NCBI GenBank assembly: GCA_029860345.1
Contig: JAOUBJ010000011.1
Location: 64,303 to 128,302 of the forward strand
Source: Candidatus Zixiibacteriota bacterium
GTDB taxonomy: Bacteria; Zixibacteria; MSB-5A5; GN15; FEB-12
Reading direction: 5' to 3'
Length of the DNA: 64,000 nucleotides
Made by a program: the position numbers and the translations under genes. The notes under the pieces are model-generated. The model searched no databases and was not told the origin of the DNA. It saw nothing but the letters and a program-made list of their open reading frames with translations. Shown one piece after another: positions 9,474-62,139 of this stretch (within the stretch, counting starts at the first letter, position 1; each line of letters begins with the position of its first letter).

Positions 9474-9998
9474 GGCGGCCACCCAGCGGACGACGACTCG
9501 TAGGGCAGGACCCCTGTGGTCATGACAAGAGTCGGGACCCACAAGGGGGTTCCGACCTACGGGGCTACGGTGCTGGCTGATGATGAGTTGGCGGGTCCAC
9601 GCCGCGGCGCGCAGGCGAAGACGGGGCTACCCTACGATTCTTCGCCCGTTTGCAACCTCACCCTGAGCGGAGTCGAAGGGTGAACCCTACCCTAGTCAAG
9701 GTTTGAGGCGGCCATCCGCCAGTTAGTCGTGTCGGGTGCCGTCAGGTGACTCGCCTGACGGCCTTTGAGCAGCGCTGTAGGTGTCGGGCGAGGTCGCCCT
9801 ACACCACCTCAACCCTTGAACCCATACCCATAGTAGGTCAGGACCCTTGTGGTCCTGACAATTGCGTCAGGTCCATAAAGGACCTGACCCACAAGACTGG
9901 CTGATGATGAATTGGCGGATCCACGCTGTGGCGGGCAGGCGAAGACGGGGCTACCCTACCGAAATCCGTCCATGGCGGAACCGCTAAGAGGGTACCGC
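9457..9998. repeat. mosaic array of short palindromic repeat units (array R1)
   Basis: Units recur elsewhere in the window. CCCCAAACAAGGTTTGAGGCGGCCACCC at 9457-9484 and 9691-9717. GTAGGTCAGGACCCTTGTGGTCCTGAC-type hairpins at 9500-9560 and 9833-9895. TCACCCTGAGCGGAGTCGAAGGGTGA at 9658-9683. A ~63-bp unit occurs twice, at 9573-9635 and 9897-9959. CATGGCGGAACCGCTAAGAGGGT at 9971-9998. Confidence 0.9.
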
Positions 9999-10262
9999 TT
10001 TGGTGTTCTTGGGTAGACGCGAAGGGCGAGAAACACGGCTTGACCGTGCTGTTCAAAAAGTAACTCCGATCAAAACTTGAACAATCGGCCAATCGATTGA
10101 ATCAATGTTGGTTACCGGAAATCCGGCTGGGATAGCATCTTTTGTCACCATAAGACATGCCATAACGTCTACCGAGGACTCCCTGTACTCACAGATCAAG
10201 CCGCCGGGTCCCTTGACCTTAGCAAAACTGTGCAAAGAGGCCTCTTTGGGAACGGTTTTTGT

Positions 10263-10291
10263 TTGTTTGGGGGCGGTTAAGATAGTATAAA
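10263..10291 (+). promoter_or_regulatory. candidate sigma70-type promoter for the 1172-aa gene
   Basis: TTGTTT (10263-10268), 17-nt spacer, TATAAA (10286-10291). A purine-rich 'AGGAAGAGGA' precedes the ATG at 10374. Confidence 0.3.
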
Positions 10292-10373
10292 GTCAGGCAG
10301 AGTGCCGATACTTAGGGTTTAAGGGGCACTCGTGCGGAGCGCCTCAAGAGGCGAATTAGGAAGAGGATAATCG

Positions 10374-13300
10374 ATGGACAAAAGGTACCACAAGTCACTC
10401 AACGGATGCATGGCATGGATCTTCGCGGCGATGGCTATGACAATCATCAGCACCGGACTAGTCGGGGTGGCGGTCGGACAGGACCTGACCCCCAGTGTCA
10501 ATTACTTCAATTTTGATTACGGCGCTGTGCCGACGTCCGATGAAATCGATTCAATCGTGGCCGGACGCTATGAAGCTTTGGTTACGGACATGTCCTACGG
10601 TTGGGGTTACGTCGACAAGTACAACGATTACGTTTTATATGATCCTGATCTGGAGTTCTACGTCTACCTCGACTTTGCCAATGTTCAGACAGCATCAGCC
10701 GCAATGGGGCGGGTCAACGAGGTTGTCGGCCCGTTGATGCAATCCGAAGGTCAGAACCCGGAGAATATGTATTGGCATTCGCGGGACTATACGCCGACCG
10801 GATGGGGCGCCTACGACGGTTACAACTCCAACATAGAGGGATCGCGGCTTCGCACCTACGGCGGTACGCGGCCACTGACCAATAACACCAACGCCAGTTT
10901 CCGTCGGCACTTCGTTGACGCCTATGTGGCCGGCATCAAGAACAAACATGCCGCTACGCGAAACTTCGACCTCACCGGGCTATGGTTCGACAACATGGGC
11001 ATACCCCAGGACTGCGGTGTATCGAGCCACGCTTCGGGTCGCTATATGTATGAGAACACACTGGGCGTCAACGCACAATTCGGTGGTGAGAACTGGTCCA
11101 GTTGGCACGGTGCCTACCGCGACACTGTGCTGTTGAAATACATGTCGCTTCTGGCCGATAGTATGATTGCTCGCACCGGAATGAAGTTGAACATCAACTC
11201 CATTGGCTGGGGTCACGGCATGGGCACCGAGTATGCCTATGGCTACCGTCCGGAGTACTTTGATCCTTCCATTAGCGGACCGGTCTCGCGCGAACACGAG
11301 TACGCCGGCACCCCGTATATGGGTTCGGTCTGCTTCTACCCCGGTCCCAACAACGGCGCTACAAGTATCGATAGCGCCTCGGCGGCGGCCGATTATTACC
11401 CCGGCACGATGTACAAAGGCATGGTGGCATGTTCGGAGGCCGAGGTGGAACACTGGTTCAATCCTTCCCACGGCAGCGATCCTTACGGTTTTACGAAATG
11501 GCATTACGACGGACTGGCTCTGTACTACCTGTGGCGAAGCGGCACCACTTATCTCAGTTTCGCCAACGATCCGGGCAACAATGGTTCGCTAAACTGGATC
11601 GACGGTGGTGGATCGGGCGGCCGATGTGTCCACGCCGGAATGCCGAACGACAGTTGTTATTGGCTTGATGCTCTCGGTGAACGAGTGGGCCGCGACGGTG
11701 CCAGTAAGGCCTGGGATCAAGATACCGTGCGCTGGTATGCGGCCAGTGTCACCTGCGATGATTGCATGATCGCCGAAGGCGCCGGCAAAGACAATGCCGG
11801 ACAAAACTGGGTAGTGTTCATGCGTCGCTGGATGGGTGATGACGCCTTCCAGTACATGGTTCTCTCCCGCCCCATGTCCACCTGGCAGACGACTTTCGCC
11901 GGTAGTAACGCTCCGGCCATCGAACTGATCGACGGACCCTGGCAGAAGATGGATCACGACGGCAACTGGGGTTCGCCGATCTCGACCGATGCCTTTCGTA
12001 ACGGCGAGGGCGGCATTTATCGCAAGGCTATGATCGGCGGCTGCACCTCACCGCCTGCCACGCCAACCCTGGCCGCTCCGGGCGACGGTGCCCCGGCTGG
12101 ATCGTATCGTCCAAGCTTGTGCGTTTACAACCCGCCGCCGGTGTCCGGATGCAACAATCCGGTGATCTACACGTTCGAGCTGTACCTTGACCCCGACCTG
12201 ACGGTCAGCGCCATGGCTCCTGTCACGGTGGCTGAACAATCCGTTTCCACCTGTTGGACACCGCTGTCGAATCTGGAAGCAGGCCGTGTTTACTACTGGC
12301 GGGCGCGTGCCTACAATGGCATGTTCAACTCGCCGTGGGCAGGGCCGTTCTCATTCTCGACGCCCAACACTCCTCCCCCGCCGCCGACTATATTCAACCC
12401 GGCCGACGGTGATACGGTCGGAACCCTGCAACCGCTGTTGAGCATAAACCAGAGTGTTGATCCAAATGGGACACCGGTGGTGTGCGAGTTTGTAATCTCC
12501 AAGTTCGAGGACTTCTCCACTCCTACGGCCACCGGATTGGTGCTTCGTGGTACCAGCCAGGTCGATTGGTCGGTGCCGGTGACGCTTGAAAACGGTGTCG
12601 CGTACTACTGGCGAGCGCGTTCCTCAGACTACATCGCCAACTCTGACTGGTGCGAGACCTGCCTATTCCTGATCGACGTGGCCGGAAACAATCCACCGTC
12701 GGCGCCCACGGTCATCAGTCCGGCCAGCGGCGACACCACCACGCAGGTCAATCCGCTCCTTACCGTACAGAATGGTTCCGACCCGGAGGGAGATCCATTG
12801 ACCTATAGTTTCGAAGTGTACGACGCCGGTATGACCGTTCTCCTGTCATCGACAAATAATGTATCCTCTGGCGCTCAGACTACCTCCTGGACAGTATCGC
12901 AGAGTCTGGCCGCCGATCAAAACTATCTGTGGCGGGCGCGTTGCTTCGACGGCGTCGGCTATTCGAGTTGGAGCGCGTCGGCCGCTTTCACCATCGCATC
13001 GGGTCAAGGGGCCAACCATCCCCCGACCATCCCGGTGCATCTGCTTCCGACCGACGGCGTTTCGGTGAGCGGCGAATCGATCCAAATGGTCATCGAAAAC
13101 TCGACCGACATTGACGGCGATTCGCTCTTCTACGATTTTTTCATCTACCTCCACCAGTCGGCCGATGGCCTTGTCGGGTCGGTCCGAAATCTGCCCGAAA
13201 CTCCGGGGCAAACCAGCGCCGAACTGCCGTTTACACCGGTCAACGGTCAAACCTACTGGTGGCGAGTGGGCGCCAATGATCGGGTCCACTGGACCGAGTT

Positions 13301-13892
13301 CACAGAGCCCACATCTTTCCGTTGGGTCAGTTTGGCCACTGATGCCGACGAGTACATCGCCGGGGCCGACCAACCACCGCCCGGTGCCACGGTGGGTTCG
13401 CGCAAGCCTACTTTGCGCGCTCGCAACATCACCGACCCGGGCCCTCATCAGTATCACTTTGATGTGTCTGTCGATTCCTCATTCGTCTCATCGGCAGCGT
13501 CCTCTCGTCCTATCGACGAAGGTAGTGACGGCTATACCGAATGGAAAGTCGATGAGCGGTTGGAACCGGGAGAGACATACTTCTGGCGCGTGAGAGCCGA
13601 CAACAATGCCTACTCGGCGCTCTCCAGTTTCACTGTCGCCACCAAGGTCTTTGCCTCGCCAAACCCGGTCTCGTTTCGCAAAGGCCAGGTGGTCACCTTT
13701 CACCTGCCGGCCAAACCGGTCGACTTGTTGATTCAATCGGTCTCCGGTGAGGCGGTGATTATCAGGGAGAGCATATCCGGAGAGTGGGTATGGGATGGCC
13801 GTAACGCATCCGGCAACAGTATAGCATCGGGTGTGTATTCCTGGTTCATTCGAGGCTACGATGCAGACGGAAAACTTGTGGTGAAACCATAA
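10374..13892 (+). CDS. secreted multidomain protein: unknown ~520-aa N-terminal domain, five tandem ~105-aa repeats, and a T9SS type-A/FlgD-Ig-like C-terminal domain
   Basis: Signal-peptide-like 'MAWIFAAMAMTIISTGLVGVAVGQ'. Repeats are marked by YYWRAR (aa 640), YYWRAR (744), YLWRAR (851), YWWRVG (961) and YFWRVR (1069). C-terminus 'SPNPVSF...VWDGRNASGNSIASGVYSWFI...' resembles a Por-secretion-tail/FlgD-Ig domain. Confidence 0.8.
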   Translation: MDKRYHKSLNGCMAWIFAAMAMTIISTGLVGVAVGQDLTPSVNYFNFDYGAVPTSDEIDSIVAGRYEALVTDMSYGWGYVDKYNDYVLYDPDLEFYVYLDFANVQTASAAMGRVNEVVGPLMQSEGQNPENMYWHSRDYTPTGWGAYDGYNSNIEGSRLRTYGGTRPLTNNTNASFRRHFVDAYVAGIKNKHAATRNFDLTGLWFDNMGIPQDCGVSSHASGRYMYENTLGVNAQFGGENWSSWHGAYRDTVLLKYMSLLADSMIARTGMKLNINSIGWGHGMGTEYAYGYRPEYFDPSISGPVSREHEYAGTPYMGSVCFYPGPNNGATSIDSASAAADYYPGTMYKGMVACSEAEVEHWFNPSHGSDPYGFTKWHYDGLALYYLWRSGTTYLSFANDPGNNGSLNWIDGGGSGGRCVHAGMPNDSCYWLDALGERVGRDGASKAWDQDTVRWYAASVTCDDCMIAEGAGKDNAGQNWVVFMRRWMGDDAFQYMVLSRPMSTWQTTFAGSNAPAIELIDGPWQKMDHDGNWGSPISTDAFRNGEGGIYRKAMIGGCTSPPATPTLAAPGDGAPAGSYRPSLCVYNPPPVSGCNNPVIYTFELYLDPDLTVSAMAPVTVAEQSVSTCWTPLSNLEAGRVYYWRARAYNGMFNSPWAGPFSFSTPNTPPPPPTIFNPADGDTVGTLQPLLSINQSVDPNGTPVVCEFVISKFEDFSTPTATGLVLRGTSQVDWSVPVTLENGVAYYWRARSSDYIANSDWCETCLFLIDVAGNNPPSAPTVISPASGDTTTQVNPLLTVQNGSDPEGDPLTYSFEVYDAGMTVLLSSTNNVSSGAQTTSWTVSQSLAADQNYLWRARCFDGVGYSSWSASAAFTIASGQGANHPPTIPVHLLPTDGVSVSGESIQMVIENSTDIDGDSLFYDFFIYLHQSADGLVGSVRNLPETPGQTSAELPFTPVNGQTYWWRVGANDRVHWTEFTEPTSFRWVSLATDADEYIAGADQPPPGATVGSRKPTLRARNITDPGPHQYHFDVSVDSSFVSSAASSRPIDEGSDGYTEWKVDERLEPGETYFWRVRADNNAYSALSSFTVATKVFASPNPVSFRKGQVVTFHLPAKPVDLLIQSVSGEAVIIRESISGEWVWDGRNASGNSIASGVYSWFIRGYDADGKLVVKP

Positions 13893-13929
13893 CAATGTAG
13901 ACTGCGATTCTATTGCGACCCTGTCCGAA

Positions 13930-13963
13930 CAGCCGTCTGCGACCTGCGGACGGCTGTTTTTTT
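13930..13963 (+). terminator. rho-independent terminator downstream of the 1172-aa gene
   Basis: Stem CAGCCGTC (13930-13937) / GACGGCTG (13949-13956), followed by TTTTTTT (13957-13963). Confidence 0.7.
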
Positions 13964-13989
13964 GAGGCTTGTACAAACGTCCTTACACA

Positions 13990-14433
13990 GTAGGTCAGGA
14001 GCCCTGTGCTCCTGACAATATCACGCACTGCTATCTGCGCAGGGCAGAACCGCTACTGGTCCGGCCGATATTCGTGGGCTGCGGGGTGGAAGCCACTTGT
14101 GGCCGTCCTCGTCTGCCTGTGACAATGGCGGGTTCACGCCACGGCGCGCAGGCGAAGACGGACCCGCCCTACTGAAGATGACGCGGGGGCATTAGATTCA
14201 TGCCTCGACTCCGCTCGGCATGACATGAATACGCGCGAGGCACGAAAAACAGGCTTGCCTGTGTCCGTCATGCTGGCGCAGGCCAGCATCCAGTCTTTGA
14301 ACACCGACCTGGATTCCGGCCTTCGCCGGAATGACGTGCACTGAATCTTTCGCCATTGGGCGGGCAAACCACCTCTAGCCGCCCTAGTCTGCCGCTTCAC
14401 AATGGCGGAACCGCTAAGAGGGTTCCGCCCTAC
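13990..14433. repeat. mosaic array of short palindromic repeat units (array R2)
   Basis: GTAGGTCAGGAGCCCTGTGCTCCTGAC at 13990-14020. The GGCGGGTTCACGCC...GCGCAGGCGAAGACGG...CCCTAC unit at 14122-14172. GCGCGAGGCACGAAAAACAGGCTTGCC at 14231-14261. Two GTCAT-hairpin units in opposite orientation at 14267-14295 and 14309-14335. CAATGGCGGAACCGCTAAGAGGGTTCCGCCCTAC at 14398-14433. Confidence 0.9.
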
Positions 14434-14592
14434 TATTGACAGCAGCGGCACTCCGTCAGTCCCCCATACTTGCATGGCCCACGAAGACGCACACCGTGCA
14501 CGGTTTGGTCCGCTTGGATATATAAACCACTTTCAACTTGAAAACGACATCGATCGTACAGATATTAGTGACAACTATGAAAGCACTGTTTC

Positions 14593-15992: not shown

Positions 15993-17942
15993 ATGACTCT
16001 GTACCGACGAACATTCTCGATCCTGCGACCGTACATCGGTCAACTGATCACGGCATCGCTATCGGCGGCCATTCATGCCTTGCTCTCCGGACTCATGGTC
16101 TGGATGGCCGGGCCTTTGCTGATGACCTTGTTCCAGGTGCAGACAGTTCCGGGATTAGACCAAACCGATAGTGTCGCACACTCAACGGCACAACCGGGAG
16201 AGCAACCGACCGACGACACAGGGCTGCTCAGCGGCGTCTCAAGCTCCATCGAAAAAGTGCGCACATGGATGAAGGGTTGGGTGAACAGTCTGGTAGAGGC
16301 CGAAACACGACGGGACACCCTGTTCAATTTCTGCTGGCTGATACTCTTGATCGCTCTGGGAAAGAACCTGTTTAATTACCTGCAGGGCTTCTTCATGGCC
16401 TTCGTGCAGCAATCGGTCGTGCGAAGTTTGCGCGACCGCCTCTTCGAGAAGTATCAGCGCTTGTCACTGGCCTACTTCCACCGTCGACGCACCGGACAAA
16501 TCATGTCGCGCGTTACCAACGACGTCATAGTACTCAACGAATCGGTCGACATCGGATTCAACCACCTGGTCGCCGACACGGTCATGGCCCTGAGCTTCTT
16601 CTCGTTTTTGATAATCCTGAGTTGGAAACTGACTCTTCTGGCCATGATAGTACTGCCCGTCGTGTTCGGGTTCATCTGGTTCGTGGGGAAAACTCTCAGA
16701 CGCTACTCGGAACGTACCCAACAGCGGATGGCCGATGTCAACTCGGTGCTGGAAGAAGCGATCAACAACACCCGGATCGTCAAAGCCTTCTCTATGGAGA
16801 AATTCGAAACCAACAAATTCGTCCAGACGACCGCCGACTACTTCAGGTCTTTGTTGCGCATGACCCGAATCCGCCACCTCGCCTCGCCGATCAACGACAC
16901 ATTGATTAGCGTGGCCGGTGTGGTCATTCTCATGTACGCCGGGGCTCGCATTATCGCCGGGACCGGTGAACTCGACGCCGGTGACTTCATGACTTTCATA
17001 ATCGCCATGTTCGCCATGATCAAACCGGTGAAATCGCTCAGCCAGGTGCATATAAAGCTGCAAGAGGGTATGGCCGCCGCCGAACGAATCTTCAGAGTAT
17101 TGGAGGCCGACGAAACCATATCCGACCCGGCCCAACCTAAGCATGTCGAGACTTTCCGAGACGTCATAAGGTACCAAAGGATCGACTTCAGTTACAACCC
17201 CGGCGAACCGGTGCTGTCCGACGTATCTTTCGACATCCGGTATGGCCAGGTGGTTGCCATTGTTGGACCCTCGGGTGCCGGAAAATCGACCCTCCTTGAT
17301 TTGTTGCCGCGCTTCTATGATCCGCAAGGTGGTTCGATCACCATCGACGGGATCGCTATCTCCGAACTGTCACTGGCCTCTCTTCGCGGGCTGATGGGCA
17401 TCGTAACGCAGGAGACTTTTCTGTTCAACGATACCATCTTCAACAATGTCGCCTATGGCCTTACCGATGTTTCACGCGACCGAGTGGTGGAAGCAGCCCG
17501 CATGGCGAACGCCGACCGATTCATCCGGGAGTTCGAGAACGGCTACGATACACTGGTGGGCAATCGCGGCGTGATGCTATCGGGGGGCCAACGACAACGT
17601 TTGGCCATCGCACGCGCCTTGCTCAAAAACCCCCAGATTCTGATTTTTGACGAAGCTACTTCGGCGCTGGATACCGAATCGGAACTGCTGGTGCAGGAAG
17701 CGATCAGTCGGCTTATGAAGAACCGCACCACCCTGGTGGTGGCCCATCGGTTGTCAACTATTGTCAACGCCGATCGTATCGTTGTTCTCAAGGACGGGCG
17801 GATCGTGGAGGAAGGTCGTCATGAAGAACTCCTGCAGTCAGAAGGATTGTACCATCGTCTCTACATGATGCAATTCAAAAACGGCGAATCCGACCCGGCA
17901 TCAGGCTCTCAGAAAACGACGATTGAAAGGGAGGATGCGTAG
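15993..17942 (+). CDS. msbA: ABC transporter, fused permease/ATPase, MsbA-like lipid exporter
   Basis: Walker A 'GPSGAGKST', signature 'LSGGQRQR', Walker B 'ILIFDEATSALD'. N-terminal 6-TM exporter domain. Followed by LPS-core glycosyltransferases. Confidence 0.8.
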   Translation: MTLYRRTFSILRPYIGQLITASLSAAIHALLSGLMVWMAGPLLMTLFQVQTVPGLDQTDSVAHSTAQPGEQPTDDTGLLSGVSSSIEKVRTWMKGWVNSLVEAETRRDTLFNFCWLILLIALGKNLFNYLQGFFMAFVQQSVVRSLRDRLFEKYQRLSLAYFHRRRTGQIMSRVTNDVIVLNESVDIGFNHLVADTVMALSFFSFLIILSWKLTLLAMIVLPVVFGFIWFVGKTLRRYSERTQQRMADVNSVLEEAINNTRIVKAFSMEKFETNKFVQTTADYFRSLLRMTRIRHLASPINDTLISVAGVVILMYAGARIIAGTGELDAGDFMTFIIAMFAMIKPVKSLSQVHIKLQEGMAAAERIFRVLEADETISDPAQPKHVETFRDVIRYQRIDFSYNPGEPVLSDVSFDIRYGQVVAIVGPSGAGKSTLLDLLPRFYDPQGGSITIDGIAISELSLASLRGLMGIVTQETFLFNDTIFNNVAYGLTDVSRDRVVEAARMANADRFIREFENGYDTLVGNRGVMLSGGQRQRLAIARALLKNPQILIFDEATSALDTESELLVQEAISRLMKNRTTLVVAHRLSTIVNADRIVVLKDGRIVEEGRHEELLQSEGLYHRLYMMQFKNGESDPASGSQKTTIEREDA

Positions 17943-23103: not shown

Positions 23104-23167
23104 CACCATGGATGTGCCGTTGTGCGACCCCGCGCGACGGCTACACAACCTCACCGTGAGCTCCTTA

Positions 23168-23694
23168 GTAGGGTGGGTCCGTCTTCGGACCCGCCATTGT
23201 CATCAGCAGATGTGGACATCTGCCAGTCACTGAGACTGTCGGCGGAGACAAGCCCCGCCGCTACGCGATAGAGCGCGAGGACGTACACCAGGCACGAAGA
23301 TGGATTCCCGCCTGCGCGGGAATGACACATGCGGCGCGGGGGTGACAGAGAGGCGGGCGTTGACCACCCTTCGACTCCGGGCAGGGTGAGATCTGAATGG
23401 GTTCGTAGACGGCCACCTCATGGTGAGCGGAGTCGAACCATGAACCTCTGGAATCTTATCCGAAGAGAATCCCGCGAGGCGCGGGATGTCGAAACCACAA
23501 CGGGTTTCGACCTACTGCCTGAAAAGGACAAGAACGAGTCCATTTTGCGGTGCAGGTCAAATGGGCCAATTTCCTTCCTCAAAGTCCCCTCTCGAGAGGG
23601 GATTTAGGGGTGTGTTATTCTACTTTTGGCAGACTAGGACGTCTGCCGCCCACAGAAAGAGAAGATGGATGCCGGATCAAGTCCGGCATGACAG
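23168..23694. repeat. mosaic array of short palindromic repeat units (array R3), between convergent genes
   Basis: GTAGGGTGGGTCCGTCTTCGGACCCGCC at 23168-23203. CAGCAGATGTGGACATCTGCC at 23204-23226. GAAGATGGATTCCCGCCTGCGCGGGAATGAC at 23297-23327. CACCCTTCGACTCCGGGCAGGGTG at 23361-23390. GGTGAGCGGAGTCGAACC at 23419-23444. TCCCCTCTCGAGAGGGGA at about 23586-23603. GAAGATGGATGCCGGATCAAGTCCGGCATGAC at 23661-23694. Confidence 0.9.
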
Positions 23695-23708
23695 ATTGTG
23701 GACTATCC

Positions 23709-29932: not shown

Positions 29933-29945
29933 CCGGCTCGCCTGT

Positions 29946-30160
29946 GTCACTCCCGCGAAGGCGAGAATCCATCTGCCCAAGCTGGCGATCAAAACCGAAG
30001 ATGGACCCCCGCCTGCGCGGGGGTGACAGATAAGCTTCAACAACGCGCGAAGCGCAAAAAAAACGGGCTTGCCCGCCGCCCCAAACAAGGTTTGAGGCGG
30101 CCACCCAGAGATTGGAAACTCTTTAACAAGTGTCATTCTGGCGAAGGCCAGAATCCAGTC
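29946..30160. repeat. mosaic array of short palindromic repeat units (array R4)
   Basis: GTCACTCCCGCGAAGGCGAGAATCCATCT at 29946-29975 and its inverted partner at 29998-30030. GCGCGAAGCGCAAAAAAAACGGGCTTGCCC at 30045-30075. CCCCAAACAAGGTTTGAGGCGGCCACCC at 30079-30106. GTCATTCTGGCGAAGGCCAGAATCCAGTC at 30132-30160. Confidence 0.9.
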
Positions 30161-30173
30161 TCCCCAGTGGCCC

Positions 30174-31337: not shown

Positions 31338-31468
31338 CTGGTCCTCCTCATTTGATGCTCTTGTCTCTGTCCACCGTCGAGATGGTCAGACGCTTGATAT
31401 TCGTTAATAAGACGTCTATTGTCAACAGATCGTTTAAGCACGGTCTTGCCCGTGTTATTCTGGGGTAG

Positions 31469-31841
31469 GCCGGAATCCAATCTTCAGTTTCCATGTCATT
31501 CCCGCGAAGGCGGGAATCCACTCTTCTCTTAGAGACCTGAAAATTCTATCCGGGTGGATCGAACGCCGCAGGAAGTATCAGCCGAGACATCAGCCACCGC
31601 TGATAAGGTTCACCCCTCGACTCCGCTCGGGGTGACAGGGTCAAGCCCTGTTTCTCGCGTTTCGCGCGCGATCCACTAATGGTGAGCGTCGGATGGCACC
31701 CTCAAACTCGGTTTGGTGGTGATTCTGTTTTTCTCCGACCCAAACTAGGTCTGAGGCGACCACCCGGAAATCGGAGCCTCTACAACAAATGTCATTCCCG
31801 CACTCCCTTTGTCATTCCCGCGAAGGCGGGAATCCATCTTC
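31469..31841. repeat. mosaic array of short palindromic repeat units (array R5)
   Basis: GTCATTCCCGCGAAGGCGGGAATCC at 31495-31526. CACCCCTCGACTCCGCTCGGGGTG at 31609-31638. CTGTTTCTCGCGTTTCGCGCGC at 31642-31669. An inverted pair of the GGTGGC..CTCAAAC..GGTTTGG unit at 31691-31719 and 31739-31765. One truncated plus one full GTCATTCCCGC unit at 31791-31841. Confidence 0.9.
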
Positions 31842-31906
31842 TTGAAGGTCGAAACCCTGCCCCGAAGGGATCTCCAACACAATCAGAAAGAACACAGACG
31901 CGGGAA

Positions 31907-41435: not shown

Positions 41436-41562
41436 GGGACGCTACAGGCTCGTCAAGCCATTTTTGGCACATTCGCGCCAAAATGGCACCCATAAATGGG
41501 TTTTTTACTGCTACGCACCCTGCAACTCTAGCGTGTGCCCGGCAGATGCTGGCGTGTGCCCG

Positions 41563-42248
41563 ACACGGTACCCCACCCAGAGCGTTTCGCGGCGGGTGGG
41601 TTTTCCGATGTCACGCTGCCAGCTGCGGCAGGTCACAATCCCCGCCTTCGGCGGGACTCAAGACCTGACACAACTCCGACACGCGGGATCGAAAGACGTC
41701 GCTGAAACAGTGCGCGCGGAGCGCGAAAAACAGGCTTGCCTGCTCAACCTGAGCGGAGTCGAAGGATGAAACCGCTCCTGTCTGTCGCAGGTGCTGTCAG
41801 GCAGATGGGTGGCACCCTCAAACCCGGTTTGGGGGTGACTCTGCACGTTGCGGCAGGTCTTGCGAATCAGCGTTAGCGGATTTGTGTGACCTGCCGCTCT
41901 CTTCTCGTAGGCACATCTGTGTCAGGTCACAATCCCCGCCTTTGGCGTGGCTCAAGACCTGACACAACTCTGACGGTCACCCCGAGCGCAGTCGAGGGGC
42001 GATTGTTCCGTGACCGGCAGATGTCCACATCTGCCGCCGTGTCATTAAACACGGTACCCCACCCAGAGCGCTTCGCGCCGGGTGGGTTCTCCGATGTCAC
42101 ACTGCCTGCCAAGTTCGGCGGCATCCCTCCTGCGGCGGACCTTCGGCGCAGGGATGCCGCCCTACTAAGAGAAGATGGATTCCCGCCTGCGCGGGAATGA
42201 CTAAATGGACATTAGTTAGGTGGGTCCGTCCTCGAACCCGCCGATTAC
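41563..42248. repeat. largest mosaic array of palindromic repeat units (array R6), in the divergent rnr/DUF401 intergenic region
   Basis: A ~52-bp unit occurs twice, at 41563-41614 and 42050-42099. A ~52-56-bp unit occurs twice, at 41629-41680 and 41919-41974. Also copies of GCGCGGAGCGCGAAAAACAGGCTTGCC (41711-41742), GAGCGGAGTCGAAGG (41745-41770, 41975-42002), GGTGGCACCCTCAAACCCGGTTTGG (41807-41835), GGCAGATGTCCACATCTGCC (42014-42038), GAAGATGGATTCCCGCCTGCGCGGGAATGAC (42171-42201) and GGTGGGTCCGTCCTCGAACCCGCC (42216-42248). Confidence 0.92.
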
Positions 42249-42432
42249 ACAACGTTGCGCGGGGTCCTTCTCGCCGCAGGCGGGTGAGACCCTGCGCGCG
42301 GAGGACCAGTTGGGTCACACTCCGCCACGGCGGACCAGGACCCAGCTGAATAGAGCGCCAGGGCAAACGACGACATCTGCCGCCCACGGCACATCAATTG
42401 ACAATCGCGGCCCATAGCCGTTTCTTCCCACA

Positions 42433-43710
42433 ATGGAAGCTGTCAAACTGCTCGCTCTGTTCGTTCTGATTGTCATCGCGCTCAGGTTCAAACTCTCGGT
42501 AGGCATTACACTGATCATCGCCGGACTGGCCACGGCGCTATTGTACGCGATACCCATCGGTCAATTGGCCGAAGGTTATTGGCAACTGGTGCAGTCGCCC
42601 AAGTTCATTTTCCTGACCTCGGTGGTGCTGTTGATCACGCTCATGGGATCACTTTTGAAAGAAGTTGGATACCTCGACAAACTCTCGTCGGCCGTTCAAG
42701 GATTGCACGGTGGGCAACGCACCGGTGCGATGGTCCTGCCGCCGTTGATCGGATTGATGCCGATGCCGGGCGGGTCGCTTTTGTCGGCGCCGCTGGTCGA
42801 CCGCGTGTTGAATGATCGGCGATACAAACCGGAGTTTCGCACCGTGACGAATTACTGGTTCAGGCATATCGCCGAGTTTGCCTGGCCGCTCTATCCGGGC
42901 ATTGTGTTGTCCGAAGCGATCACCGGTCTGCCGATTGGCGATGTAGCCTTGCTGCAACTTCCGCTGACCATCATGATGGCCATCATAGGTATCTTCTTCT
43001 TCATACGCACGATCCAACCGAGCGCCGCTAACTCGCACGGCACAGGCACGGCACTGATCGGAATTATCGGCGCGCTCTGGCCGATTGCATTGGTCATTCT
43101 CATTTACGGCATCGCCCGGATCGAACTGGCCTGGGCGTTGCTGATCTCGATTGCTGTCATGCTGATGGTGACGAGGCCTAAACGCGCGAACCTGTGGCGG
43201 GCAACCAAAGAAGGTTTGTCGTACAAACTCATCCTGCTGGTTTTTGGCGCGCTGTCATTTCAGACAACTCTTGAGTTGTCAGGTGCGATTGAGGCTATAC
43301 CGAGACTCTCCGCCGGGTACAATCTGCCCCCGGAACTGATCATCTTCCTCGTTTGTTTCGCAGCCGGCATTCTCACCGGGATGGTGGCCGCCTATGTCGC
43401 AATCGGCTACACAATCCTGGCCGGGTTGCTGTATCAGCACGGCATTGAGCCGGGCTATATCATGCTGGCTTACTTGTCCGGCTACTTTGGCATGATGCTC
43501 TCCCCGGCCCATTTGTGCCTGGTGCTCACCAACGAGTATTTCAAAGCCGACTTATCACTGGTTTACCGCCGCCTCGCCCCACCGCTGACCCTTTTGCTTC
43601 TGGGCGGCCTTCTGCTCTACTTTTCCGGATGGCCGGAGTTGTTCGGCGATGAATCGCTTTCTCGCGCTTCGCGCCTTTGTATCCTCACCCTGAGCGGAGT
43701 CGATGGGTGA
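42433..43710 (+). CDS. DUF401-family polytopic membrane protein (putative transporter)
   Basis: 425 aa with more than 10 TM segments. Family recalled from overall pattern, not searched. The last ~20 codons and the stop are encoded by repeat units (43650-43710). Confidence 0.55.
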   Translation: MEAVKLLALFVLIVIALRFKLSVGITLIIAGLATALLYAIPIGQLAEGYWQLVQSPKFIFLTSVVLLITLMGSLLKEVGYLDKLSSAVQGLHGGQRTGAMVLPPLIGLMPMPGGSLLSAPLVDRVLNDRRYKPEFRTVTNYWFRHIAEFAWPLYPGIVLSEAITGLPIGDVALLQLPLTIMMAIIGIFFFIRTIQPSAANSHGTGTALIGIIGALWPIALVILIYGIARIELAWALLISIAVMLMVTRPKRANLWRATKEGLSYKLILLVFGALSFQTTLELSGAIEAIPRLSAGYNLPPELIIFLVCFAAGILTGMVAAYVAIGYTILAGLLYQHGIEPGYIMLAYLSGYFGMMLSPAHLCLVLTNEYFKADLSLVYRRLAPPLTLLLLGGLLLYFSGWPELFGDESLSRASRLCILTLSGVDG

Positions 43711-43757
43711 ATCTACCGTGATGCGACCCGTCCCAAACAAGGCTTGAGACGTCCACC
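43650..43757. repeat. three repeat units spanning the 3' end of the DUF401 gene (array R7)
   Basis: GAATCGCTTTCTCGCGCTTCGCGCC at 43650-43675. TCACCCTGAGCGGAGTCGATGGGTGA at 43685-43710, which contains the stop. CCCAAACAAGGCTTGAGACGTCCACC at 43732-43757. Confidence 0.85.
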
Positions 43758-46060: not shown

Positions 46061-46079
46061 GGGTCGGCAAAACCGAAAA

Positions 46080-46179
46080 CTGGATTCTGGCCTTCGCCAG
46101 AATGACAGATAGATGTGCTCGTGCTTCGACTGCGCTCAGCATGACATGATTCTGTGGGCGGCAGACGTCCTCGTCTGCC
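46080..46179. repeat. short repeat cluster (array R8)
   Basis: CTGGATTCTGGCCTTCGCCAGAATGACAG at 46080-46108. CTTCGACTGCGCTCAGCATGACATGA at 46124-46149. GGCAGACGTCCTCGTCTGCC hairpin at 46160-46179. Confidence 0.85.
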
Positions 46180-46624
46180 CCTGGTTTGTGCCCGTGTGAT
46201 CTTCAGATCGCGCGGGAGGGCACTACGGCAAAATGGGTTCGTTTGTGCCCTTTTCAAGTTTGCATAATAGGACTTGTAGCGATTCTGAGCGTTTTTCCAT
46301 TCGACGCGCACCTCTATCAATTCTATTCTTATCAATATCTGTGTTCATTGGATAGGTCCTTTTACCAACCAGTGTGCACAGGTATCTTGGTGGGTGTTGG
46401 TAGGGTATTTGTGGGGGGTTGCCGGGGTTTCTGGTTGTCATTGTGGATCGTTTGAGTTACATTGTGCAAAGTCAGGGTCCCTGTTGTTCGACCTTGAGAT
46501 CTGGAGGCGAATCTAGGACACTTGGCTGGAACAATAGAAGTGTCTTAGCCCAGTAAATATCAAAGGAACGATTACGGACAGTTGGTGGGACTTAGGTGAA
46601 CACAGTGGTTTTCGTGGCGGCAAG

Positions 46625-56941: not shown

Positions 56942-58111
56942 ATGGAACCAATATATCTCGATCACAACGCCACGACGCCGGTGGACCAGGCCGTAGTAGA
57001 GGCCATGCTGCCATTCCTGAACGAAGATTTCGGCAACGCCAGTTCCGCTCACTCGTTTGGTCGTGACGCCAAGGTTGCCCTGGAACAAGCCAGGGAGATG
57101 ATCGCCGGGATTATCAACTGTCAACCGAACGAATTGTACTTCACCTCAGGCGGTACCGAATCCGACAACATCGCCGTGCTTGGAACGGCCTATCAGTATC
57201 CAAAAAGGAAGCATGTCGTTGTGGGGTCCACCGAGCACCATGCCGTGTTTGAGCCGGCCGAATACCTGCACCATCACGACGGCTACGATCTGGATTTCCT
57301 GCCGGTCGATGTCGAAGGCTTTGCCTCGGCGGAGCAACTAAGCGAATTAGTAAGGGACAACACGGCCATCGTATCGGTGATGCATGCCAACAACGAAACC
57401 GGCGCCATACAAGAGTTGTCCACGCTAACCGAAGTGACTCGGGCGCGCGATATACTGTTTCACACCGATGCAGTGCAGTCTATCGGCAAGATCGTGGTTG
57501 ACGTCAAAACGCTCGGCGTGGATCTGATGTCCCTGACCGGGCACAAGATTTATGGACCCAAGGGGACGGGGGCTTTGTTCGTGCGGCAGGGTGTCAAGAT
57601 TGCTCCTTTGTTCTACGGCGGCGCTCACGAGAAAAAACGGCGACCCGGCACCGAGAACGTCGCCGGCGCGGTCGGGCTGGCCAGGGCGCTCGAAGTAGCC
57701 GAGAAACAGCGTGAAGATGATTTCATACGGCTGTCCAAACTGGCCGATGAGTTTATCGACCGGGTGACTGAGACTATTCCCAATAGTTTTGTCAACAGCC
57801 CGCGCAAACGTCGCATTCCACAGACGGTCAACATGTCTTTCCCCGGCGCTGAGGGAGAGTCGATCATACTCAGTCTTGACCTGAAAGGGATCGCGGCCTC
57901 GTCCGGCTCGGCCTGTACTTCCGGCGCCACCGAACCTTCGCATGTACTGACGGCGATGGGCATACCGCTTGAGCGTGGACAGGCGGCCGTTCGTTTTTCA
58001 CTCGGCCGCGCCACCACCGCTCGGCACCTGGATTATGTCGTCGAGGTGCTTCCCCCGATCATTGAACGGCTGCGCGCCATGTCGCCCACCTACCGACAAA
58101 CTCAGGCTTAG
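56942..58111 (+). CDS. nifS: cysteine desulfurase (NifS/IscS class V aminotransferase)
   Basis: 'MEPIYLDHNATTP', PLP-lysine 'SLTGHKIYGPKG' and active-site 'SSGSACTSG'. Confidence 0.9.
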   Translation: MEPIYLDHNATTPVDQAVVEAMLPFLNEDFGNASSAHSFGRDAKVALEQAREMIAGIINCQPNELYFTSGGTESDNIAVLGTAYQYPKRKHVVVGSTEHHAVFEPAEYLHHHDGYDLDFLPVDVEGFASAEQLSELVRDNTAIVSVMHANNETGAIQELSTLTEVTRARDILFHTDAVQSIGKIVVDVKTLGVDLMSLTGHKIYGPKGTGALFVRQGVKIAPLFYGGAHEKKRRPGTENVAGAVGLARALEVAEKQREDDFIRLSKLADEFIDRVTETIPNSFVNSPRKRRIPQTVNMSFPGAEGESIILSLDLKGIAASSGSACTSGATEPSHVLTAMGIPLERGQAAVRFSLGRATTARHLDYVVEVLPPIIERLRAMSPTYRQTQA

Positions 58112-58173: not shown

Positions 58174-59394
58174 ATGGCTGAATCGGTTCTGGTTGCCATG
58201 TCCGGCGGCGTTGACTCGTCGGTGGCCGCGCTCTTGTTGAAAGAGCGGGGGTACGACGTGGTCGGGGCGCACATGAAACTGTGGGACTACACAGAAGTGG
58301 GCGCCGACATGTTCCGCGACGGGCGCTGTTGTTCGCTGGATGCGGTTAATGACTGTCGTGCGATTTGTGATGCCATCGACGCACCTTTCTACGTACTGAA
58401 TCTCTCGCGGCAGTTTCGCGAAGTGGTTATCGATAACTTCGTCGACGAGTACAAAGCGGGCCGCACACCCAACCCATGTGTGCGCTGCAACACGAATGTG
58501 AAGTGGGAACCGTTTCTTCAGAAGGCGAAGGAACTTGGTTGCGACTATATCGCCACCGGACATTACGCCCAAATCGAAAGCGATGGTGAACAGTTACTGC
58601 TTCGTAAAGGTGTCGATGCCTCACGCGACCAATCCTATTTTCTCTGGGGTCTGCAACAAGACGCGCTGGCTATGACCCTGATGCCGCTTGGCGGTATGCA
58701 CAAGTCGGAAGTGCGGGAGGTCGCGCGCCGCCATGGTTTGAAGACGGCCGAAAAGGCCGAGTCGCGCGAGATTTGTTTCGTGGCCGATGACGACTATCAT
58801 CGTTTCCTGCGTGACTGGGACGACAAGCAGAAGATACCTGCCGCACCGGGCGATATTGTCGATCAACAAGGCGCGGTTCTCGGACAACATGAGGGAACGG
58901 CGTACTACACTATCGGTCAACGGCGTGGGCTGGGTCTTTCGCATCCGACGCCGTTGTACGTGCTCGATATCGACGCCGACAACAATCGGGTGATTGTCGG
59001 CGACGATTCAGCCCTCTTGACGTCTGAGATGACGGTCGAGAGTGTTAACTGGATAGGGAGGATACCATTGGAAGAACCCACAGCAAGCTGTGGGCCACCC
59101 GGGCCGTCGAGATTGCCGCGTCGTCCCGCGCAAAGCGGGACTCCTCGCAATGACAACACACCGGATGATGCTTCGAGTCTCCCCGAGCGGAGTCGAGGGG
59201 CGACTAACGACGACACCCTCAACGTCTACGTCAAAATCCGCTACCAACATCCAGCCGCCGAGGCGCAACTTGTCTCCTTGACGGACAACACCGTCCGTGT
59301 TACCTTCGATACCAAACAACGCGCCGTCACACCCGGCCAGTCGGCTGTATTCTACGACGACGACGTCCTTTTGGGCGGCGGGTTGATTAGGTAA
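58174..59394 (+). CDS. mnmA: tRNA 2-thiouridine(34) synthase MnmA, carrying an in-frame repeat-derived insertion
   Basis: PP-loop 'VAMSGGVDSSVAA', 'NPCVRCN', 'ATGHYA' and C-terminal 'VTPGQSAVFYDDDVLLGGGLI'. About 45 extra residues lie between 'VNWI' and 'VKIRY'. Alternative starts at 58162 and 58165. Confidence 0.9.
   Translation: MAESVLVAMSGGVDSSVAALLLKERGYDVVGAHMKLWDYTEVGADMFRDGRCCSLDAVNDCRAICDAIDAPFYVLNLSRQFREVVIDNFVDEYKAGRTPNPCVRCNTNVKWEPFLQKAKELGCDYIATGHYAQIESDGEQLLLRKGVDASRDQSYFLWGLQQDALAMTLMPLGGMHKSEVREVARRHGLKTAEKAESREICFVADDDYHRFLRDWDDKQKIPAAPGDIVDQQGAVLGQHEGTAYYTIGQRRGLGLSHPTPLYVLDIDADNNRVIVGDDSALLTSEMTVESVNWIGRIPLEEPTASCGPPGPSRLPRRPAQSGTPRNDNTPDDASSLPERSRGATNDDTLNVYVKIRYQHPAAEAQLVSLTDNTVRVTFDTKQRAVTPGQSAVFYDDDVLLGGGLIR
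59081..59215. repeat. palindromic repeat modules inserted in-frame within mnmA (array R9)
   Basis: CCCACAGC-aa-GCTGTGGG at 59077-59094. GTCGTCCCGCGCAAAGCGGGACTCC at 59120-59144. CCCCGAGCGGAGTCGAGGGG at 59181-59200. The last two belong to families seen in the intergenic arrays. Confidence 0.8.
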
Positions 59395-61099: not shown

Positions 61100-61110
61100 C
61101 ACTCCTGACC

Positions 61111-61350
61111 TCACCCATCGACTGCGCTCAAGGTGACAGAGGGTAGCCGTCGCGCGTGGTCGCACAACGGCACTTGAGAAGATGGATTCCCGCCTGCGCG
61201 GGAATGACAAAGAAGCGCCGGAGTAACAAAGAAGGTCGGGAATGACAAAGAAGCGCCGGAGTAACAAAGAAGAACAAGTAGGTCGAAACCTGACTTCGCC
61301 GGGTGACAGACCGAAGAAGGCGCACCACCCTTCGACTCCGTTCAGGATGA
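61111..61350. repeat. repeat cluster (array R10), including a 38-bp-period tandem duplication
   Basis: TCACCCATCGACTGCGCTCAAGGTGACAG at 61111-61139. GAAGATGGATTCCCGCCTGCGCGGGAATGAC at 61177-61208. GGGAATGACAAAGAAGCGCCGGAGTAACAAAGAAG occurs twice, at 61200-61234 and 61238-61272. CCACCCTTCGACTCCGTTCAGGATGA at about 61325-61350 overlaps the lgt stop. Confidence 0.9.
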
Positions 61351-62139
61351 TGTCCGCCGGGACTGCCCAAAGTATATACCCAGGCCGACGGCGAAGAGCG
61401 ATATCGAGACGACCATGTTCCAGGTCGGTTGGTAACCAAAGACTTCGAAGTACATGGCATCTTCATAGTAGCGTACATACTCAATCGCAAAGCGGAACAA
61501 TGCCTCGATCATAAACAACAAGGCCAGTATCTGTCCTGCGAACTGCTTGCGCTTCATCATGAAATGCAAAAGCAGAAACAACCCCACACCATAGAGCGAA
61601 CTATAAAGCTGCGAAGGGTGGATGTGTTCGTGAGGAAAGACATAGCTGGGGATGGAACCACCTGGGAACATCACGCCCCACGGCAGATCGGTCGGGGTAC
61701 CGAAACAACATCCGTTGAGAAAGCAACCGATACGAGTCAACCCCAAACCGATCCCGACAGTCGGTGCGAAGTAGTCCAGCGTGTCAAGGACAGGTATCTT
61801 TCGCAATCGGCAGTACAGCACAACGCCCAGCGTGGCCAGCACCACGCCGCCATACATGTTCAATCCGGCGATACCGTAGCTGTCCGATGCGAACGGATTA
61901 AAAGTCGAACCCCAATTGCCGGCGAACTCTTCCAGATGCAAGACTATATATGACAGCCGAGCCCCGACAACGCCGCCGATTATCAGGATATAGGCGAGGG
62001 TAAGAAACTGCTCGGTCGATTTGCCTTCGCGTGTGGCCATGCGACTGACATACCAAACACCGGCCAGAAATGACAAAGCCAGCGCCAGTCCGTAGGCACG
62101 TACCGGGATAGGTCCTATTGAGAAAAGTTCAGGAAACAT
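61342..62139 (-). CDS. lgt: prolipoprotein diacylglyceryl transferase
   Basis: 'FSIGPIPVRAYGLALALSFLAG' N-terminus, 'GLTRIGCFLNGCCFG' Lgt signature region, 7-TM pattern. Confidence 0.85.
   Translation of the reverse strand: MFPELFSIGPIPVRAYGLALALSFLAGVWYVSRMATREGKSTEQFLTLAYILIIGGVVGARLSYIVLHLEEFAGNWGSTFNPFASDSYGIAGLNMYGGVVLATLGVVLYCRLRKIPVLDTLDYFAPTVGIGLGLTRIGCFLNGCCFGTPTDLPWGVMFPGGSIPSYVFPHEHIHPSQLYSSLYGVGLFLLLHFMMKRKQFAGQILALLFMIEALFRFAIEYVRYYEDAMYFEVFGYQPTWNMVVSISLFAVGLGIYFGQSRRTSS

Follow-up and report, generated by a model that had tools for sequence, protein, structure and literature searches.

A window of 64,000 nucleotides (nt) from Candidatus Zixiibacteriota bacterium, by which we mean the whole stretch of DNA analysed here, raises the question of how a conserved tRNA-modification gene came to carry palindromic repeats inside its reading frame, and what they mean for the enzyme. 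The gene is mnmA (58174-59394, plus strand), which specifies a tRNA 2-thiouridine(34) synthase of 406 amino acids (aa). In our reading, which we regard as very probably correct, the inserted segment consists of elements of the repetitive extragenic palindromic (REP) type that were caught in frame in a permissive loop of MnmA, and this loop is now a recurrent landing site. The first-pass annotation had already proposed an in-frame palindromic-repeat insertion within mnmA, and both the comparison of spacer lengths and the tests of repeat-family membership bear it out.

The gene was identified from the list of open reading frames (ORFs) and from matches in Pfam and the PDB. The protein has the three-domain MnmA architecture, with a HUP domain (PF03054, residues 4-204, E=2.4e-73), a PRC-barrel (residues 218-277) and a C-terminal beta-barrel (residues 346-405), PF20259 and PF20258 both being matched. 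A phmmer search of the PDB found the MnmA 9hln (E=1.7e-78), and Foldseek with an AF2 (AlphaFold2) model of the window MnmA retrieved the MnmA structures 2deu and 2hma (E about 1e-38; target-normalised TM-score 0.87 for both), MnmA-tRNA co-crystal entries being among the matches. The PP-loop S10-G-G-V-D-S15 and the cysteines C102, C105 and C201 are intact and are invariant in alignments with relatives. We take the region of these cysteines to correspond to D99, C102 and C199 of Escherichia coli MnmA, and the combination of C102-x-x-C105 with C201, in place of the Asp...Cys plus Cys of E. coli, presumably marks an iron-sulfur-dependent type of MnmA. A cysteine desulfurase gene (Aminotran_5, 56942-58111) lies directly upstream of mnmA, an adjacency that we would liken to the yrvO-mnmA pair of Bacillus.

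The spacer from W293 of the 'VNW' segment to K354 of the 'KIRY' segment is 60 aa long in the window MnmA (residues 294-353, 59053-59232, plus strand). The canonical length is 14 aa, which was found in about 55 of 70 related genomes of a species-representative collection, in 77 of the 120 best database MnmA homologues and in Bacillus subtilis MnmA. Alignment with insert-free relatives, whose spacers measure 13-15 aa (15 aa in P0003, 13 aa in P0008, 14 aa in P0011 and 13 aa in L052), places about 138 nt of extra repeat-derived DNA, or about 46 codons, at approximately 59077-59215 on the plus strand, with edges that are fuzzy by a few codons. The first-pass annotation had put the normal spacer at about a dozen residues, the present one at 58 and the excess at about 45, close to these values, and its coordinates, peptide and three palindromes proved correct on re-examination of the sequence. 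B. subtilis MnmA aligns to the window protein in two stretches (residues 5-306 and 341-405) with the insert between them, and the Pfam match of the C-terminal beta-barrel covers only positions 18-77 of the 77 in the profile, indicating that the first loop of the barrel domain is interrupted. The reading frame stays open across the insert, and the conserved C-terminus of MnmA is encoded downstream in the same frame, as had also been seen in the ORF translation. Tryptic peptides to be expected from 59077-59215 are NDNTPDDASSLPER and GATNDDTLNVYVK.

Repeat-rich metagenomic assemblies can be chimeric, and the insert has a GC content of 65.5% vs 56.4% in the remainder of mnmA, both of which would suit a misassembly through repeats. 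However, seven contigs from independent samples encode an identical 406-aa protein, and the insert DNA was identical in all five contigs fetched, which come from ENA (one assembly), Logan (two assemblies) and NCBI (two metagenome-assembled genomes, MAGs) and derive from different samples and assemblers, so that misassembly is very unlikely; P0001, a protein from a candidate division Zixibacteria MAG, is 100% identical to the window MnmA. An inactivated pseudogene fits no better, since the frame is intact, the SGGVDS motif and the three cysteines are present, the ratio of nonsynonymous to synonymous substitution (dN/dS) is 0.07-0.15 in the core of three insert-bearing relatives, and mnmA keeps its place beside the cysteine desulfurase gene. 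An artefact or a dead gene is hardly credible as an explanation of this insert. Of the two conditions that the first-pass annotation named as refuting the insertion, a homologous segment of equal length in close relatives and an assembly artefact, neither was borne out.

The insert contains three palindromic units, here called M1, M2 and M3 in their order along the plus strand. In a census of perfect hairpins with a stem of at least 7 base pairs (bp), the coding DNA of the window held 0.75 per kb vs 4.7 per kb in its 6.8 kb of intergenic DNA. Hairpins are therefore not rare enough in coding DNA for those of M1 and M2 to be remarkable by themselves, and family membership was tested unit by unit. 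A blastn-short comparison of the insert with the remainder of the window was significant for M3 only, M1 and M2 giving chance-level 9-11-mers.

M3 (59172-59209, plus strand) is a copy of the TCACCCTGAGCGGAGTCGAAGGGTGA family and reads LPERSRGA. A covariance model trained on 11 intergenic copies of this family, with the mnmA copy left out (model R1), scored it at 29.7 bits (E=5e-7), and on the window the mnmA copy was the sole strong match outside the training seeds and the sole copy lying wholly within a coding sequence (CDS). In the seeds the 12-nt loop, GAGCGGAGTCGA, is conserved, and four of the seven pairs of the 7-bp stem show compensatory changes on both sides; the hairpin in mnmA (59178-59203) is imperfect, with one mismatch in the stem. 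By blastn, M3 matches 31613-31632 at 20 of 20 positions and 41980-42002 at 22 of 23. Of the 11 seeds, 7 have a TGTC or CCTC tag, and the mnmA copy has AGTC. M3 is a clear and statistically secure member of an intergenic repeat family with 11 further copies in the window, as the first-pass annotation had held in placing it with the repeat at 41975-42002.

M2 is a unit of 44 nt (59111-59154, plus strand) that fits a pattern found in metagenomes and has the form GATTGCCGCGTCG-[hairpin]-CTCCTCGCAATGAC, and it reads LPRRPAQSGTPRND. Its core (59119-59141) joins a CGTC tag (59119-59122) to the stem-loop GTCCCGC-GCAAA-GCGGGAC (59123-59141; stem 7 bp, loop 5 nt), followed by TCC, and an outer GATTGC...GCAATGAC palindrome encloses the unit. 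It had been assigned to the family of the repeat at 31495-31526, and this assignment failed: a covariance model of the 10 intergenic copies of that ATTCCCGC...GCGGGAAT family (model R2) gave 59119-59150 only 9.5 bits (E=1.3), the two having in common just a general layout of CGTC tag, stem, loop and tail. A scan of the metagenome collection with the pattern GATTGCNNCGTCGN{5,35}CTCGCAATGAC found at least 150 copies in at least 120 stretches, and the most frequent form among the matches listed is the 32-mer GATTGCTTCGTCGCTTCGCTCCTCGCAATGAC. Variants with a hairpin at the position seen in the window occur, for example GATTGCTTCGTCGTCCCGAAAGCCTTCGGGACTCCTCGCAATGAC in L152, and close look-alikes were found in L152, L176, L124, L172, L143 and L145. 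The flanks of the M2 unit also recur in the mnmA inserts of L001, L003, L081 and L083. Judged by sequence, M2 is typical of a dispersed family, GATTGCnnCGTCG-[hairpin]-CTCCTCGCAATGAC. The GATTGCnnCGTCG...CTCGCAATGAC family is widely distributed, and a full-text search of the accessible literature by sequence string gave no relevant paper on it. In L151 (3969-4972), nine M2-family units stand at an exact spacing of 121 nt, so that in some genomes the unit also belongs to a tandem array.

M1 is the perfect palindrome CCCACAGC-AA-GCTGTGGG (59077-59094), in full CCCACAGCAAGCTGTGGG, with a 7-bp stem and a 4-nt loop. Its minus strand reads GTGG-CCCACAGC, which has a GTAG-like head while an intact GTAG head is absent. 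The exact 18-mer occurs in an intergenic hairpin array of L071 (at 17989), and L024 (at 6905) has an almost identical hairpin whose opposite strand bears a GTAG head. M1 is probably repeat-derived as well, with less certainty than M2 or M3, a point that the first-pass annotation had left undecided.

The same loop is occupied in relatives of the window's genome. In L089, whose MnmA is 76% identical to that of the window, an inverted doublet bounded by GTAG...CTAC comes after M3, in the layout of a REPIN (REP doublet forming a hairpin), and in L090 M3 stands with a GTAGGTCGAAACC hairpin. The insert of L092 holds a unit matching the window family D18. Those of L081, L083 and L001 combine an M2-type unit that has a different central hairpin with a hairpin of the form GGCAGG...CCTGCC, M3 copies both partial and complete, and a GGCAGGATC...CTAC unit. 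In L009, a CGTC-1-type unit (39.2 bits, E=7.5e-10 against the intergenic ATTCCCGC family of the window) is found together with a GGTCAGGACC hairpin and an M3 copy at 40.8 bits, and L012 has a GTAGGTCGAAACC hairpin. GTAG heads are intact in units within the mnmA genes of L089, L090 and L012. Gains and losses were placed on an unbootstrapped neighbour-joining tree of this single protein, in which the MnmA proteins of L009 and L012 fall outside the window's clade, and the insert-free P0003, P0008 and P0011 are nested within the insert-bearing group. Across lineages, the loop holds at least nine unit types that are unrelated to one another, and several of them have intergenic counterparts (the CGTC-1-type unit, the GTAGGTCAGGA doublet, GTAGGTCGAAACC, the D18-like unit, GGCAGGATC...CTAC, M1 and others); many have such counterparts within the window itself. 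So many unrelated unit types at one loop require several separate insertion events.

This bears on the alternative that one ancient insertion diverged in place and suffered partial deletion and loss, the loop being no recurrent target. The orientation and frame of M3 do not vary across the seven insert-bearing genes examined (those of the window, L089, L090, L081, L083, L001 and L009), and the GAGATTGCCGCGTCG and CTCCTCGCAATGAC flanks of the M2 unit are common to the window, L083, L001 and L081, so that the pattern is partly inheritance from one old insertion. The M3 family is also rare in the 1.35 Mb of related loci, where 5 of its 12 matches lie in the mnmA loop, which suits vertical inheritance. 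However, point mutation cannot convert the nine or more unit types into one another, several of these types have intergenic counterparts, the window's clade does not include L009 or L012, and the CGTC-type unit of L009 is read in a different frame from that of the window. We therefore consider a single insertion unlikely as the whole explanation, and prefer repeated insertion into one loop.

Two observations concern the surroundings of this loop. In P0003 (L091, 1534-1599), the insert-free sister of L089, the spacer has one extra codon, and the site reads CCGAGCGTCGAC ('SVD' in the protein); apart from a gap of 3 nt this is similar to the M3 loop GAGCGGAGTCGA and may, speculatively, be the scar of a deletion. 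In several lineages, the intergenic DNA just downstream of mnmA, about 200-400 nt away from the intragenic site, is packed with M3-type and CGTC-1-type copies (L083 11307-11432, L081 11313-11350, L009 1568-1603, L024 4783-4934, L047 11150-11377 and L070 11091-11126), a packing that is perhaps partly a sampling effect, since the loci sampled were centred on mnmA.

What the insert means for the enzyme was approached through structure prediction and substitution rates. The AF2 model, built from an alignment of 118 sequences, has a confident MnmA fold (mean predicted local distance difference test score, pLDDT, 87; most non-insert residues above 90), and residues about 294-347 are modelled as coil (pLDDT about 45-64) between the strands 282-293 and 348-354. 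The insert is accordingly predicted, at low confidence, as a disordered loop of the C-terminal barrel. In the three insert-bearing relatives, dN/dS is 0.44-0.74 in the inserts vs the low values of the core given above. The hairpin stems are decaying: those of the window, L001, L083 and L090 contain mismatches, and one copy in L081 is badly eroded. The repeat units are stop-free in 3 to 6 of the 6 frames, and with so few stop codons their in-frame survival is possible. These data point to a tolerated, nearly neutral passenger in what is predicted to be a working enzyme.

An adaptive role, in which a disordered extension alters tRNA or partner binding or the mRNA hairpins regulate translation or stability, would agree with the retention of the insert in most members of the clade, with the part that the C-terminal barrel takes in anticodon recognition (PMC10853782), and with an insert RNA somewhat more structured than shuffled sequences (z=-1.83; 7 of 200 shuffles fold as well). 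Against it stand the relaxed dN/dS of the insert, the differences in sequence, length and unit content among close relatives, the three nested lineages free of an insert, the decay of the stems, the absence of structure from the insert in the AF2 model, and a hand count of about six Arg vs six Asp plus Glu, which leaves no net charge. We judge adaptation to be decidedly improbable here, less so than an artefact but more so than a single old insertion, and retain the passenger interpretation.

Two classes of REP are distinguished, GTAG-tagged elements associated with RAYT (REP-associated tyrosine transposase) enzymes and CGTC-tagged elements without a known transposase; Rickettsia RPE-4 and RPE-6 (RPE, Rickettsia palindromic element) and Neisseria dRS3 are placed in the CGTC class, dRS3 being CGTC-1 (PMC3733652). 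In that survey, a CGTC REP is described by a CGTC, TGTC or CCTC tag, an 8-9 bp stem starting A-T, a loop of 4-5 nt and a tail of CCA consensus (PMC3733652). The fit of M2 to this definition is close but not exact: the CGTC tag lies directly 5' of the stem and the loop has 5 nt, but the stem has 7 bp and starts GT, the tail is TCC, and the unit is nested in an outer palindrome. M3, with its 12-nt loop, falls outside the definition, and its stem has 7 bp. The TGTC-ATTCCCGC-GAAG-GCGGGAAT-CCA family of the window appears to fit CGTC-1 in its tag, 8-bp AT-starting stem, 4-nt loop and CCA tail, and the in-frame unit of L009 fits the CGTC-1 layout, as described there, exactly.

Di Nocera, De Gregorio and Rocco (2013, BMC Genomics 14:522; PMC3733652) have compiled intragenic REPs of both classes from several phyla. 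More than half of them are dimers or groups, with clusters encoding 43-82 aa in Thauera and R. conorii (PMC3733652), and the elements, like those of the window, are short stem-loops found mainly between genes; many adjoin a stop codon or provide one, and in some genomes they lie wholly within ORFs of known proteins. Neither mnmA nor trmU is in the supplementary tables of PMC3733652, and neither Zixibacteria nor mnmA is covered by the survey; here, moreover, one loop has units of several families together, with a different set in each lineage. The insertion had been announced beforehand as a new instance, which holds for the phylum and the gene but not for the phenomenon, already catalogued in that survey. 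Our case is a further example of a known phenomenon, in a new phylum and a new gene, made by repeat families that are unnamed in the searchable literature. A full-text search for the repeat strings returned unrelated PCR (polymerase chain reaction) primers only, and a literature search for Zixibacteria together with extragenic palindromes returned no paper.

The likeness to RPEs that had been drawn at the outset is apt as regards in-frame insertion into a conserved gene. RPEs (Ogata et al. 2000, as cited in PMC3733652) are in-frame palindromes in genes that are likely still functional, and mnmA likewise has an in-frame insertion in a conserved and, by its sequence, apparently functional gene. 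However, RPE-1 is a longer single element whereas the mnmA insert is a mosaic of short units of different families, and the hosts of RPEs are obligate intracellular whereas ours is a free-living environmental bacterium. As the classes are described in the same source, the likeness is one of class, through the CGTC tag, and the L009 mnmA unit belongs to the same class as RPE-4 and RPE-6.

Other kinds of element were considered and set aside. A miniature inverted-repeat transposable element does not fit, as no direct repeats flank the insert or its units, the units measure 18-44 nt where such an element would span 70-300 bp, and no ends like those of insertion sequences were seen. An intein or intron was rejected on the lack of motifs, the size of only 138 nt and the lack of an Rfam match, a scan of the whole window at Rfam gathering scores having returned none. 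The target of a diversity-generating retroelement would vary by adenine-specific substitution, whereas the variation here is in length and unit content, and low complexity generated by slippage was rejected since the units match dispersed families.

How the units reached the loop may be sketched as follows. A small cluster of REP-type elements would have entered the first inter-strand loop of the C-terminal beta-barrel of MnmA, and would have survived there through a total length that is a multiple of three, few stop codons and a loop tolerant of unstructured residues. The segment would then be translated as a disordered passenger loop that is nearly neutral and has no demonstrable function of its own, the core remaining under strong purifying selection. 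Within the clade of the window, and in two or more further Zixibacteria lineages, the loop holds different combinations of the at least nine unit types or none, and in this way acts like an intragenic version of the intergenic arrays. Enterobacterial bacterial interspersed mosaic elements (BIMEs) and the dRS3/NIME (Neisseria intergenic mosaic element) arrays of Neisseria are interleaved palindromic units that grow, shrink and attract insertions, and they are extragenic by definition. The intergenic gaps of the window resemble such arrays, and the mnmA loop is their miniature, but one predicted to be translated. Because the loop behaves like an array and REPs are known to cluster in intergenic DNA, a resident hairpin might seed further insertions.

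For the GTAG-headed units of the relatives, mobilisation by a RAYT tyrosine transposase acting on single-stranded hairpins is plausible. GTAG hairpins and inverted doublets, as in the inserts of the relatives, characterise the REPIN/RAYT system (Bertels and Rainey; Nunvar et al.; cited in PMC3733652 and PMC8049555), whereas the three units of the window insert have no intact GTAG head. RAYT homologues were met elsewhere in the sampled DNA. L025, whose MnmA is 59% identical to that of the window, has one at 16359-17483, 6 kb from mnmA (tblastn E=5e-25 against E. coli RayT), flanked by three or four GTAGGTCAAGCCG-type (GTAGGTC) REPs at one end and a single one at the other, the arrangement of a REPtron. 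A further RayT homologue is present in L126, a contig with M2-family units.

Taking these points one step further, we tentatively suggest that the loop could be a self-seeding heritable landing pad, in which a tolerated hairpin has attracted further GTAG-headed and CGTC-type units. On the same footing, a translated 'coding BIME' might grow, shrink and sometimes be cleanly lost, always in frame and within an essential enzyme of tRNA modification, across the phylum. This extension is a good deal less secure than the capture of REP-type elements itself.

Several points weigh against our preferred account. Gains and losses depend on the single-protein, unbootstrapped tree, which makes an exact count of them impossible, and the constant orientation and frame of M3 and the common flanks of the M2 unit look like descent. 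Neither M1 nor M2 recurs within the window, their status as repeats coming from other genomes and metagenomes, and M2 lacks a significant match to the CGTC-1-type family of the window. A tblastn search of the window with E. coli RayT found no RAYT, no other transposase was found in it, Pfam searches of ten ORFs adjoining the arrays likewise returned no transposase, and no target-site duplication is evident around the insert. Retention of the insert in mRNA and protein is a prediction from sequence. As the barrel has a role in anticodon recognition (PMC10853782), the insert, not proven neutral, might also affect function.

Palindromic units are common in the intergenic DNA of the window, of which mosaic, BIME-like arrays occupy 9474-10373, 13893-14592, 23104-23708, 29933-30173, 31338-31906, 41436-42432, 46061-46624 and 61100-61341. 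Noncoding DNA accounts for 10.6% of the window, and of the 75 perfect hairpins of the window 32 lie in this DNA or touch it. The arrays mix at least six hairpin families, with GTAG...CTAC inverted doublets at about 9500-9561 and 9833-9891. Duplicated segments (41563-42109 and 9454-9719) place copies of D16 486 nt apart and copies of D17 294 nt apart, and a spacing of 233 nt recurs in two different arrays, which suggests, from sequence, that arrays may also grow by segmental duplication. At 61199-61272, 19-nt tandem units, CGGGAATGACAAAGAAG and CCGGAGTAACAAAGAAG, adjoin a CGTC-1-type copy and resemble reiterated half-repeats.

Intergenic seeds of the M3 family, with their R1 scores, lie at 9652-9689 (plus strand, 51.1 bits), 14192-14229 (minus, 48.8 bits), 23358-23395 (minus, 39.5 bits), 23412-23449 (plus, 46.6 bits, with the fully compensated stem TCATGGT/ACCATGA), 31604-31641 (minus, 50.5 bits, its 20-nt core identical to the mnmA copy), 41738-41775 (plus, 44.5 bits), 41971-42008 (plus, 41.2 bits, the example given in the first-pass annotation), 46113-46150 (minus, 43.4 bits) and 61105-61142 (minus, 40.4 bits). 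A further seed (61319-61356, minus, 39.4 bits) overlaps the 3' end of the ORF at 61342-62139 on the minus strand, and another copy of the family (43679-43716, plus) overlaps the 3' end and stop codon of a DUF401 gene (42433-43710). Copies of the TGTC-ATTCCCGC-GAAG-GCGGGAAT-CCA family, in which four of the eight stem pairs show changes on both sides, are found at 14301-14336, 23292-23327, 29945-29980, 29993-30028, 30131-30162, 31494-31529, 31810-31845, 42167-42202, 46072-46107 and 61174-61209.

Of the 46 CDSs in the window, mnmA alone contains an intergenic repeat in its interior, which is the outcome of the scan for further cases that the first-pass annotation had proposed, run here within the window. 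In two other genes a repeat supplies the last codons and the stop codon. An M3-family hairpin (43685-43710) contributes about eight terminal codons and the TGA stop of the DUF401 gene, and the C-terminus of the DUF401 product is therefore repeat-derived; a D4-family repeat, CCGCCCCAAACAAGGTTTGA (9454-9473), supplies the final codons and stop of the gene at 8139-9473. A 16-nt core of D4 within the gene at 6979-8142 (7657-7672) was not counted as an insertion, since the flanking stem is absent. The ORF at 10374-13892 (1172 aa) has three internal repeats of about 315 nt (12291-12964) that are unrelated to the palindromes, and its product looks like a repeat-domain protein.

Outside the window, a MurB gene in L166 (412-1782, minus strand) has an in-frame insertion of about 27 aa with the M2-family unit TSLREGEADVAI, lying between segments aligned to residues 82-258 and 272-337 of Pseudomonas aeruginosa MurB. 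Long open frames span 27 of the 150 M2-family copies among the matches listed, and many of these frames are probably spurious ORFs in GC-rich DNA, the MurB case being the one that was verified. Possible further in-frame cases of the M2 family are L198 (PFL-like), L210 (a PD-(D/E)XK nuclease protein) and L183 (in a linker between two oxidoreductase modules).

In-frame capture of REP-type elements is now known in a candidate phylum that is represented by metagenomes only and in a conserved tRNA-modification enzyme, and the MurB case, on an unrelated contig, hints at a wide spread in environmental bacteria. The re-use of one loop by several families across lineages is its less ordinary aspect, and a ten-codon loop re-used by different sets of units provides a compact system for studying target choice, seeding and clean loss. 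For annotation, segments such as HPERSRR, LPRR..PRND and VIPAKAGIQ in conserved proteins are to be read as translated repeats rather than new domains, and differences in the length of this MnmA loop should not be taken as functional divergence. If the loop is indeed a landing pad, its many independent events would constitute a natural experiment on the target choice and excision of REPs, and REP arrays would generate disordered protein segments de novo.

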